A DNA stretch of 64,000 bases from Elsinoe ampelina. Taxonomy: Eukaryota. The notes below the pieces were generated by a model that made no database searches, was not told the origin of the DNA, and worked only from the letters and a program-made list of their open reading frames with translations. Positions 18,470 to 19,035 of this stretch are shown here, piece by piece. The stretch lies in contig ML992504.1 in NCBI GenBank assembly GCA_010093995.1, forward strand, positions 186,001 through 250,000, given 5' to 3'. A program made the position numbers and the translations under genes. The first letter of the stretch is position 1. The number at the start of each line of letters is the position of its first letter.

Positions 18470-19035
18470 TCTCTAGTATAAGCTACTATCTAAAACTCTA
18501 ATCCTTACCTAACTACTAACTATAAACTTCTAATAGTAGTACTTAGTAAGGCTAGAGTCCTTATAATTAATAGTAATATACTTAGTATAGATAGTATTAA
18601 GGTTTATATCTATAAATAAGTATTAATCGAGGTTTTAATATATATTAAATAGGTATATACCTTCTATATCTCTAATAATAAATACCTCTACTAATTCTTA
18701 GAGAGCTTTAAGTATATTAGATATCTAGTGCTTAACCTTAAGAGTAAGCTATATATTTTAGAATATCTTATAGATAAGACAAGAAAAGAGAAGTTTATAG
18801 AATAATAATTAGACTTTCTTCTAGTAGTAATAAATCTTATAGAGAGTAATAGCTATCTTCTATTAGTTCTACTTTATAATTAGAAACTATAATAATTACT
18901 ACTAGGCTTAAATCTCTACTTCTTTCTAGGCTTAGCTTTAGATTATAGTATCTTCTTTATAGTAAGTTACTTCTCTTTATAACTTCTTTCTCTAGGACTA
19001 ATAGTAGCTTAAGAACAACTCTTAGTATATACTAT
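18470..19035 (-). pseudogene. Histone H3-like gene copy 2 (RIP-mutated); 3' end approximate
   Basis: De-RIP translation: [56 protein letters not shown]..EVER(W)TSDALEALQESAEAFIVRDME|DxNLNAIHAKRVTINRKD. Introns 18899-18853 and 18660-18610 sit at the same positions as in copy 1. Confidence 0.9.

Follow-up and report, generated by a model that had tools for sequence, protein, structure and literature searches.

The question raised by this locus is what kind of histone was once encoded by a decayed histone H3-like gene of the fungus Elsinoe ampelina, and whether its unusual residues point to a centromeric role. The gene, here called copy 2, lies on the minus strand of a 64,000-nt stretch of DNA referred to as the window (assembly GCA_010093995.1, contig ML992504.1, positions 186,001 to 250,000 of the forward strand; all coordinates given are those of the window), and a more decayed copy 1 lies in the same AT-rich block. 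A preliminary description of copy 2 had proposed a histone that retains K4, lacks K9 and possibly mimics centromeric H3 (CenH3). The evidence assembled here makes it very probable that the locus is a pseudogene of H3L, the histone H3-like family first described in a hAT element of Pyrenophora tritici-repentis. Copy 2 itself is dead, a pseudogene disabled through repeat-induced point mutation (RIP), and because it is dead no present function is at stake.

Codons of copy 2 were numbered with Met as 1, and RIP was undone (de-RIP) by reversing C>T and G>A codon by codon. The copy is colinear with H3 only once two GT..AG segments of 47 nt and 51 nt are cut out, the unspliced copy carrying its tail in frame 1 and its fold in frame 3. 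Copy 1 has both introns as well, of 49 and 48 nt, with GT..AG borders in the 49-nt one. At the site of intron 1, the related protein P0151 carries a 16-aa in-frame read-through insertion after KPG(S/T), and at the site of intron 2, read-through insertions of 15-19 aa follow FEG in P0127, P0148, P0151, P0155, P0156, P0166 and P0143. As the two interruptions are placed like the read-through insertions of these relatives, the gene model is that of the H3L family. All seven relatives are 'histone H3' calls from metagenome or run assemblies; they represent intact H3L-type genes whose short, stop-free introns, with lengths in multiples of three, were translated through, which means that fungi not yet sampled possess intact H3L genes.

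The decay of copy 2 is extensive. The triplet at 19033-19035 is ATA where ATG is expected, the whole frame is without ATG, and ten premature TAA or TAG codons were found (codons 9, 23, 31, 40, 56, 60, 77, 80, 88 and 97). A further TAG, at 18511-18509 on the minus strand, falls at the length at which H3L proteins end. The GC content of the gene is 24.6%, and the 566 nt at 18470-19035 hold 3 CpA+TpG and 125 TpA dinucleotides, giving a TpA/ApT ratio of 1.84 versus 0.5 in the GC-rich flanks. Among the nine sequencing runs listed for the sequence, two hold at least half of the query words, both from one sample, and no RNA run was among those listed.

Despite this decay the N-terminal tail can be traced. 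As had been proposed, the start de-RIPs to MARTK: positions 19035-19021 read ATA GTA TAT ACT AAG, and reversal of C>T and G>A leads back to M-A-R-T-K at every codon. Only three MARTK-compatible 15-mers occur in 1000-20450 on both strands, and one of these is in frame, 45 codons ahead of VALREI. The 45 codons ahead of V46 match the number in H3, and KQLATK and KPRKK(R)RFKPGT are still legible among them. The claimed loss of K9 also holds, at a different codon: the TAA at codon 9, which had been taken for the K9 site, sits at R8, where arginine is RIP-compatible, and K9 itself corresponds to codon 10, where GCT (Ala) stands, a triplet that RIP cannot produce from AAR.

Signature of the H3L family

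The likeness of copy 2 to H3 goes beyond what chance would give. Its raw frame-3 translation matches H3 chains of the PDB (phmmer, E=1.3e-4), all 60 of the 60 chains listed being of H3 type, and the Pfam Histone model gives E=0.099, below the Pfam cut-off, a weakness put down to RIP. A HMMER search of 1.84 billion representatives with the unrepaired exon 2-intron-exon 3 translation returned 22 proteins at E<=1e-3. Sequences were examined for 14 of them, eight of which are concatenated canonical H3 models; the other examined matches include the short metagenome proteins P0127 and P0143, whose ends (VTIQYRDSRLARRYYCKF and VTIQKKDSDLALHYYKKF, respectively) resemble the odd end of copy 2, ITINYKDSSLTKYYYQKF. 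Exon 3 of copy 2 agrees with the H3L C-termini of both P0127 and P0170 (VTIQQKDSWLAKRYYRKF). When P0127 was used as query, named relatives were obtained, including P0159/P0160, a 'histone H3' of Pyrenophora tritici-repentis (158 aa, in a cluster of 19 sequences), together with proteins of Paraphoma chrysanthemicola, Massariosphaeria phaeospora, Pyrenophora seminiperda and Alternaria gaisen. P0159/P0160, from P. tritici-repentis, represent the H3L that Manning et al. (2013, G3; PMC3538342) described. Transduplicated through a hAT DNA transposon, H3L is reported there as 26 near-identical expressed copies between hAT terminal inverted repeats (TIRs) in P. tritici-repentis, and its proteins are stated to 'belong to neither' H3 nor CenH3 (Manning et al., 2013).

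Alignment of H3L proteins yields a set of marks, namely a MARTK start, (K/R)(R/K)FK(P/A)GT, KLPFSR, EAxEAF(L/I)(V/I)GYFE(G/D), xN(I/L)NAIHAKRVTIQ and KDSxLAxRYYxKF, and nearly all of them were recovered by de-RIP from copy 2 and likewise from copy 1. For instance, codons 66-70 of copy 2 (CTT CTC TTT TCT TGT) read L-P-F-S-R, and the preliminary description was right that TCT cannot come from Gln, its source being Ser or Pro only. At this Q68 site copy 1 has AGC, which permits S or G, and P0158 has G. The Y41 site is TTT (F) in both copies and F in four of the six intact relatives, and the Y99 and C110 sites read TTT and AAT, respectively, in both copies. At the C-terminus, KDSxLAxRYYxKF replaces canonical KDIQLARRLRGERS in the window copies; the codons are GAC TCT AGC CTT ACT AAG TAC TAC TAT TAG AAG TTT in copy 2 and GAT TTA TAG CTT ACT TAT TAC TAT TAT ATA AAG TTT in copy 1. 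Other sites vary: some H3L relatives (P0170) have K9 and others lack it, the Y of GY survives as TAT in copy 1 and is GAT in copy 2, and the F of YFE is ATA in both copies. The switch between serine codons at Q68 (TCT versus AGC) was considered as proof of selection and dropped, since AGC is also reachable from GGC (Gly), as P0158 illustrates.

Several of these states cannot be made by RIP from canonical H3, namely TTT at Y41, TCT/AGC at Q68, TTT at Y99, AAT at C110, TCT/TTA at I124, and TAC TAC/TAT at 130-131 followed by AAG TTT (K-F). Compared with canonical H3, copy 2 requires transversions at codons 10, 42, 69, 103, 114, 128 and 134-135. At Y41, Q68, Y99, C110, I124 and 130-131, copy 1 has either the identical codon or one that suits H3L equally well (TTA at I124). 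The GCT at K9 is a further RIP-unreachable state, seen in copy 2 alone, the copy 1 tail being unalignable. In ten columns of the fold, canonical H3 and the majority of H3L proteins have different residues; there copy 2 is compatible with H3L only in five, with canonical H3 only in two, with both in one and with neither in two.

The spliced literal translations of both copies were also scored with phmmer against a set of seven H3L proteins and 24 distinct canonical H3 sequences. Copy 2 gave 51.4-73.4 bits against H3L and 48.4-56.5 bits against canonical H3; six of the seven H3L proteins (58.9-73.4 bits) scored above every canonical sequence, so that the copy does not nest within canonical H3. 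Copy 1 gave 53.1-73.1 bits against H3L and 43.5-50.2 bits against canonical H3, with all seven H3L proteins above all canonical ones. P0170, together with P0260, was the top match of both copies, at ~73 bits.

Certain observations count against the assignment to H3L. One H3L protein, P0169, reaches only 51.4 bits with copy 2, inside the canonical range. Compatibility with RIP across the whole fold is non-discriminating (H3L 0.61-0.73, canonical H3 0.71 and the CenH3-like metagenome protein P0129 0.73, with shuffled controls also high) and was given no weight, the assignment being drawn from a few signature sites and HMM scores. In addition, transversions between copies 1 and 2 amount to 11/83, 5/82 and 10/81 at codon positions 1-3 and to 16/93 in the introns; this codon-position bias is weak and non-significant, and the numbers are too small to speak for past selection.

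The window copies resemble the H3L of P. tritici-repentis in their MARTK start and non-canonical tail, in being multi-copy and in fully matching neither H3 nor CenH3, and they share with it the motifs K(R/K)(R/K)FK(P/A)GT, KLPFSR, EAxEAF and CN(I/L)NAIHAKRVTIQ and the KDSxLAxRY(Y/F) C-terminus. However, the P. tritici-repentis copies are intact and expressed, whereas those of the window are all RIP-dead; the former have 158 codons with tail insertions and no added residues in loop 1 (+0), against ~142 codons and three added residues (+3) here; and the former reside in Pleosporales, whereas Elsinoe belongs to Myriangiales and scans here found no hAT ends or transposase. The intact metagenome and run-assembly proteins P0170, P0127, P0148, P0151 and P0155 have introns at the same two places, and P0170 has in addition a lengthened loop 1 (+2) and the LAKRYYRKF end. 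When metagenome contigs were scanned with the H3L alignment, 80 of the 587 matched stretches were retained, all with 53-57% identity, and the 69 parsed among them were canonical H3 genes that gave no H3L context. A search of proteins with a six-sequence H3L profile was dominated by tandem-duplicated H3 fusions and gave no list of H3L-holding taxa, and a protein atlas queried with P0170 returned only generic 'Histone H3' clusters.

Repeat-rich setting and possible carrier

Both copies lie in an AT-rich block of 19.5 kb (~1000-20450, GC 0.21-0.29), which, together with a 2.3-kb AT island (30000-32300), is set in DNA of 0.49-0.63 GC. The block is RIP-saturated, with TpA/ApT of 1.91 and (CpA+TpG)/(ApC+GpT) of 0.04, compared with 0.5 and 1.3 in the GC-rich parts. 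Its repeats were mapped by transition-tolerant self-comparison and Pfam scans (Table 1). The plus-strand Gypsy element has long terminal repeat (LTR) pieces at 11746-11960 and 17839-18055 that are 93% identical, and one gag-pol frame extends over 12401-17750 (5.3 kb) despite dozens of RIP stops, with Pfam matches to RT_RNaseH_2 (4.5e-16), RT_RNaseH (3.5e-13) and SH3_Tf2-1 (6.2e-6). To the left of this element, at ~1.1 kb, lies copy 1, and immediately to the right lies copy 2; before the Gypsy insertion the two may have stood head-to-tail ~1 kb apart. They have in common only the gene itself, ~170 nt on its upstream side and 60-80 nt on its downstream side (9680-10647 versus 18451-19203). Copies 1 and 2 differ by 11-16% transversions and are therefore old paralogues, not fresh duplicates. 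Furthermore, an H3L remnant, a spacer and a Gypsy LTR together form a composite that is present twice (1609-4019 versus 9918-12495).

Table 1. Coordinates of the H3L copies and associated repeats in the window
Feature	Position	Strand	Content or evidence
H3L copy 2, RIP-killed pseudogene, ~142 codons	18509..19035	-	codon table, PDB and library matches, phmmer
Copy 2 exon 1	18900..19035	-	N-tail MARTK(G/S)R(P/S)(R/Q)A(T/A)...KQLATK...KPRKK(R)RFKPG(T); codon table; RFKPGT and KKRRFK as in H3L relatives
Copy 2 intron 1	18853..18899	-	47 nt, GTAAT..GATAG, phase 1, after KPG; frame restored by its removal
Copy 2 exon 2	18661..18852	-	alphaN helix to alpha2, loop 1 (+3), R-(W/Q/R)-x-S-x-A-L-E-A-L-Q-E, ..EAF..
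Copy 2 intron 2	18610..18660	-	51 nt, GTATAT..TTATAG, phase 1, after ..E-G; codon table
Copy 2 exon 3	18509..18609	-	DxNLNAIHAKRVTIxYKDSxLA(K/R)(R/Y)YY(R/Q/W)KF.., then stop; codon table
H3L copy 1, more decayed	9740..10380	-	5' tail unalignable, same two introns, +3 loop 1
Foreign segment, ~200 nt	9937-10136		inside copy 1, splitting it between ALQ and ATEAF
Possible third H3L remnant	1609..1911	-	weak exon-2 traces flanking insert copy; minus-frame translation ..EFLIVEG|IY..
Inverted repeat, 48-244 nt upstream of copy 2 start	19083..19279	.	88-nt arms (19083-19170, 19192-19279), 80% complementary
RIP-degraded Ty3/Gypsy (Tf2-like) element between copies 1 and 2	11746..18450	+	Pfam, LTRs; right end estimated
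Second, inverted Gypsy element of the same family	~4489-9911	-	self-comparison

By analogy with P. tritici-repentis, the carrier of H3L here would be a DNA transposon. This part of the reading draws solely on analogy and copy number, and it is opposed by what surrounds the genes: in Pfam scans of all six frames that read through stops, the stretches 1000-4500, 10600-11500 and 19000-20700 showed no hAT transposase, DUF659 or hAT dimerisation domain, no TIR or target site duplication (TSD) was found in the window, and the surroundings of both copies are Gypsy-type. H3L might instead be a host gene family of the Dothideomycetes, ordinary and non-mobile, which was duplicated segmentally within the repeat block and then killed by RIP with no transposon carrier. 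Such an origin would fit not only the lack of an adjoining transposase or TIR at either copy, but also the narrow limits of the unit they share, the resemblance of the repeated composite to a segmental duplication, and the several Pleosporales entries that fall in one-sequence clusters. It is nevertheless judged rather unlikely, because in the sole species studied H3L lies between hAT TIRs in 26 copies (Manning et al., 2013; PMC3538342), because both window copies lie in a graveyard of transposable elements, and because saturated RIP hides a transposase from Pfam more readily than it hides a 140-aa histone fold. A model with H3L contained in LTRs of 2.5 kb belonging to the minus-strand Gypsy element was also considered and dropped, as the repeat 11478-12495 corresponds to the 5' LTR and gag start of the plus-strand element and the orientations do not fit.

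Other features of the region were recorded alongside. The ~200-nt segment within copy 1 contains internal palindromes and occurs a second time at 1628-1820, with 91-95% identity, resembling a miniature inverted-repeat transposable element or the end of a solo element. Of the inverted repeat upstream of copy 2, only the left arm is common to the upstream region of copy 1. Within the plus-strand Gypsy element, eight overlapping TAGTTTAGTACC-like copies form a tandem array of 12-nt period at 16108-16271. The AT/GC boundary at 20320-20440 carries a GC-richer, hairpin-like inverted repeat (ctaccctaacctacccctaggcttagctaa ... ttagctaagcctaggggtgggttagagtagg) with CCCTAA-like units, which may be an element end or a relic of telomere repeats. 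The AT island (29900-32300, minus strand) corresponds to a less-RIPped DNA transposon of pogo/Fot1 type (GC 0.34, substrate index 0.45), with a Pfam DDE_1 match of 3.6e-19 at residues 372-554 of minus frame 3. A long open reading frame at 40966-43413 encodes the exocyst component Sec5; its identity is 93% with Elsinoe fawcettii, 86% with E. australis and 82% with Sphaceloma murrayae, which places the host in Elsinoe (Myriangiales, Dothideomycetes).

Canonical H3 and CenH3 as alternative origins

Published work on related fungi suggests another source, a decayed duplicate or captured copy of the host's canonical H3 whose odd residues arose by neutral drift. In Dhillon et al. (2019, Mobile DNA; PMC6710886), hundreds of RIP-killed H3-like copies are reported in AT blocks of six Mycosphaerellaceae, with hAT-mediated H3 amplification in Pseudocercospora fijiensis, Cercospora and Sphaerulina; the element described is a 9.5-kb hAT with DUF659, 20-bp TIRs and 8-bp TSDs that carries one or two H3 copies, and these copies are read as intron-less retrocopies of host H3. 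The window copies show the same general pattern, being RIP-inactivated, limited to an AT-rich block and biased from CpA towards TpA, and their tail, with MARTK and KQLATK recoverable, has exactly the canonical length. On visual inspection, the H3-derived hAT consensus of Cercospora zeae-maydis in Additional file 2 of that article also shows, in its H3-like part, two GT..AG-like interruptions at the same two intron positions. The interruptions fit oddly with a general intron-less retrocopy origin, a claim made for P. fijiensis (Dhillon et al., 2019).

In other respects the window copies depart from the Mycosphaerellaceae pattern, keeping both introns and an H3L-type sequence, with no hAT parts found in scans. 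The C. zeae-maydis consensus, whose H3 part has KKPYHYKLG (after de-RIP KKPHRYKPG, as in canonical H3) and ..NLAAV.., is without H3L marks (PMC6710886), which assigns the Elsinoe copies to the Pyrenophora type and not to that of the Mycosphaerellaceae. Descent from canonical H3 would moreover require transversions in at least seven codons, six of which recur in copy 1 as H3L-compatible codons of intact H3L, and copies 1 and 2 share these signature states in spite of their 11-16% transversion divergence. As the phmmer scores of both copies are also higher against H3L than against canonical H3, an origin from the host's canonical gene can be given very little credence.

Hallmarks of CenH3 include loss of Q68, a longer loop 1, F84W and F in place of Y99. 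The likeness of copy 2 to CenH3 (CENP-A, Cse4, Cnp1) thus lies in its replaced Q68, its longer loop 1, its F at Y99 and possibly a W84, and several details lend a CenH3-derived or centromere-mimicking origin some support. Loop 1 is indeed longer than in H3, although by three residues and not by the approximately two first estimated: the D77-R83 gap is eight residues versus five, the same in copy 1, and the +3 equals that of P0129. Codons 87-88 (CAC-TAG) do allow R-W, with the reservation that TAG permits W, Q, R or stop, an origin from CAG or CGG having been allowed for in the original proposal, and that CAC permits H or R; and among PDB chains the raw translation scores highest with an H3.1/CENP-A chimera (25.4 bits, versus 25.3 for H3.3).

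These resemblances are met again within H3L. PFSR and Y99F are marks of the whole family; loop 1 is +2 in P0155 and P0170, +0 in the others and +3 in both Elsinoe copies; and position 84 is mostly F, P0260 having W, P0158 having Y and P0155 having M. The W84 reading finds no support in copy 1, where ATC stands for I, V, T or A and is not W-compatible. The N-tail of unalignable sequence and different length that characterizes CenH3 was not found in copy 2, in which the tail is H3-like in length and MARTK, KQLATK and RFKPGT are recoverable. The RYYxKF end and N110 are H3L-specific, whereas P0129 has LCAIH and ..ARRLRG, and the spliced copy scores 28.1 bits against P0129, a value lowered by the partial, intron-containing (read-through) model of that protein, versus 73 against H3L. 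A profile of six intact H3L proteins gave 177 PDB matches, the best 60 of which are all canonical H3 types (~198-204 bits, full length including the tail), none of them named CENP-A or Cse4. With its copies multiple and dead in addition, a CenH3-derived or centromere-mimicking locus is extremely improbable, and that part of the preliminary description falls, while its picture of a K4-keeping, K9-less H3 variant with non-canonical fold residues stands. H3L thus derives from H3 and has come by convergence to share a few states with CenH3.

Ancestral protein and meaning for the H3L family

If copy 2 is a relic of H3L, the gene before RIP would have had three exons and ~142 codons and encoded an H3-derived nucleosomal histone. 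Its product would have kept an H3-length tail with MARTK (K4) and had no ARKS motif at K9, and would have carried Y41F, Q68S, Y99F, a loop 1 extended by three residues, C110N and a C-terminus rewritten to KDSxLAxRYYxKF. The protein presumably paired with H4. Four of the family-specific changes, C110N, I124S, L/I130Y and R131Y, fall in or beside the H3:H3' four-helix bundle, and because they do so, homotypic nucleosomes would be probable. Nucleosomes of this kind would be without the H3K9 methylation site and could have blunted heterochromatic silencing of the element that carried them. Because several copies stood within a repeat-rich block, RIP proceeded to saturation and rendered them inert.

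A literature search found no functional study of intact H3L. It is conceivable, although doubtful, that H3L is an old histone lineage borne on mobile DNA across orders of Dothideomycetes (Pleosporales to Myriangiales) and not the product of a single capture in Pyrenophora, its peculiarities having been selected in a transposon-encoded anti-silencing histone. Were it true, the selected traits would be the K9-less tail, Q68S, a loop 1 that lengthened repeatedly, as in CenH3, and the altered H3:H3' interface (C110N, L130Y, R131Y). The element would then have been wrapped in nucleosomes that refuse H3K9 methylation and do not mix with host H3, and what is left in Elsinoe would be the remains of such an element, over which RIP had prevailed.

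Altogether, the locus is a new, dead member of a known and little-studied family, and as such of modest interest. It widens the range of H3L to Elsinoe (Myriangiales) from one Pleosporales wheat pathogen and a few other species whose proteins are annotated 'histone H3', and no report of H3L in Elsinoe was found in a literature search on Elsinoe or H3L. As H3L extends to Elsinoe, with a signature still recognisable after saturating RIP, the family is argued to be older or more mobile than a recent event in Pyrenophora would imply. RFKPGT, PFSR, NxNAIH, KDSxLAxRYYxKF and two conserved introns together provide a sequence definition that sets H3L apart from the host-H3-derived copies of Mycosphaerellaceae, and the inert locus can serve as a marker for genome-wide and class-wide surveys. 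Furthermore, CenH3-like residues in a repeat-borne H3 need not signify centromere function.

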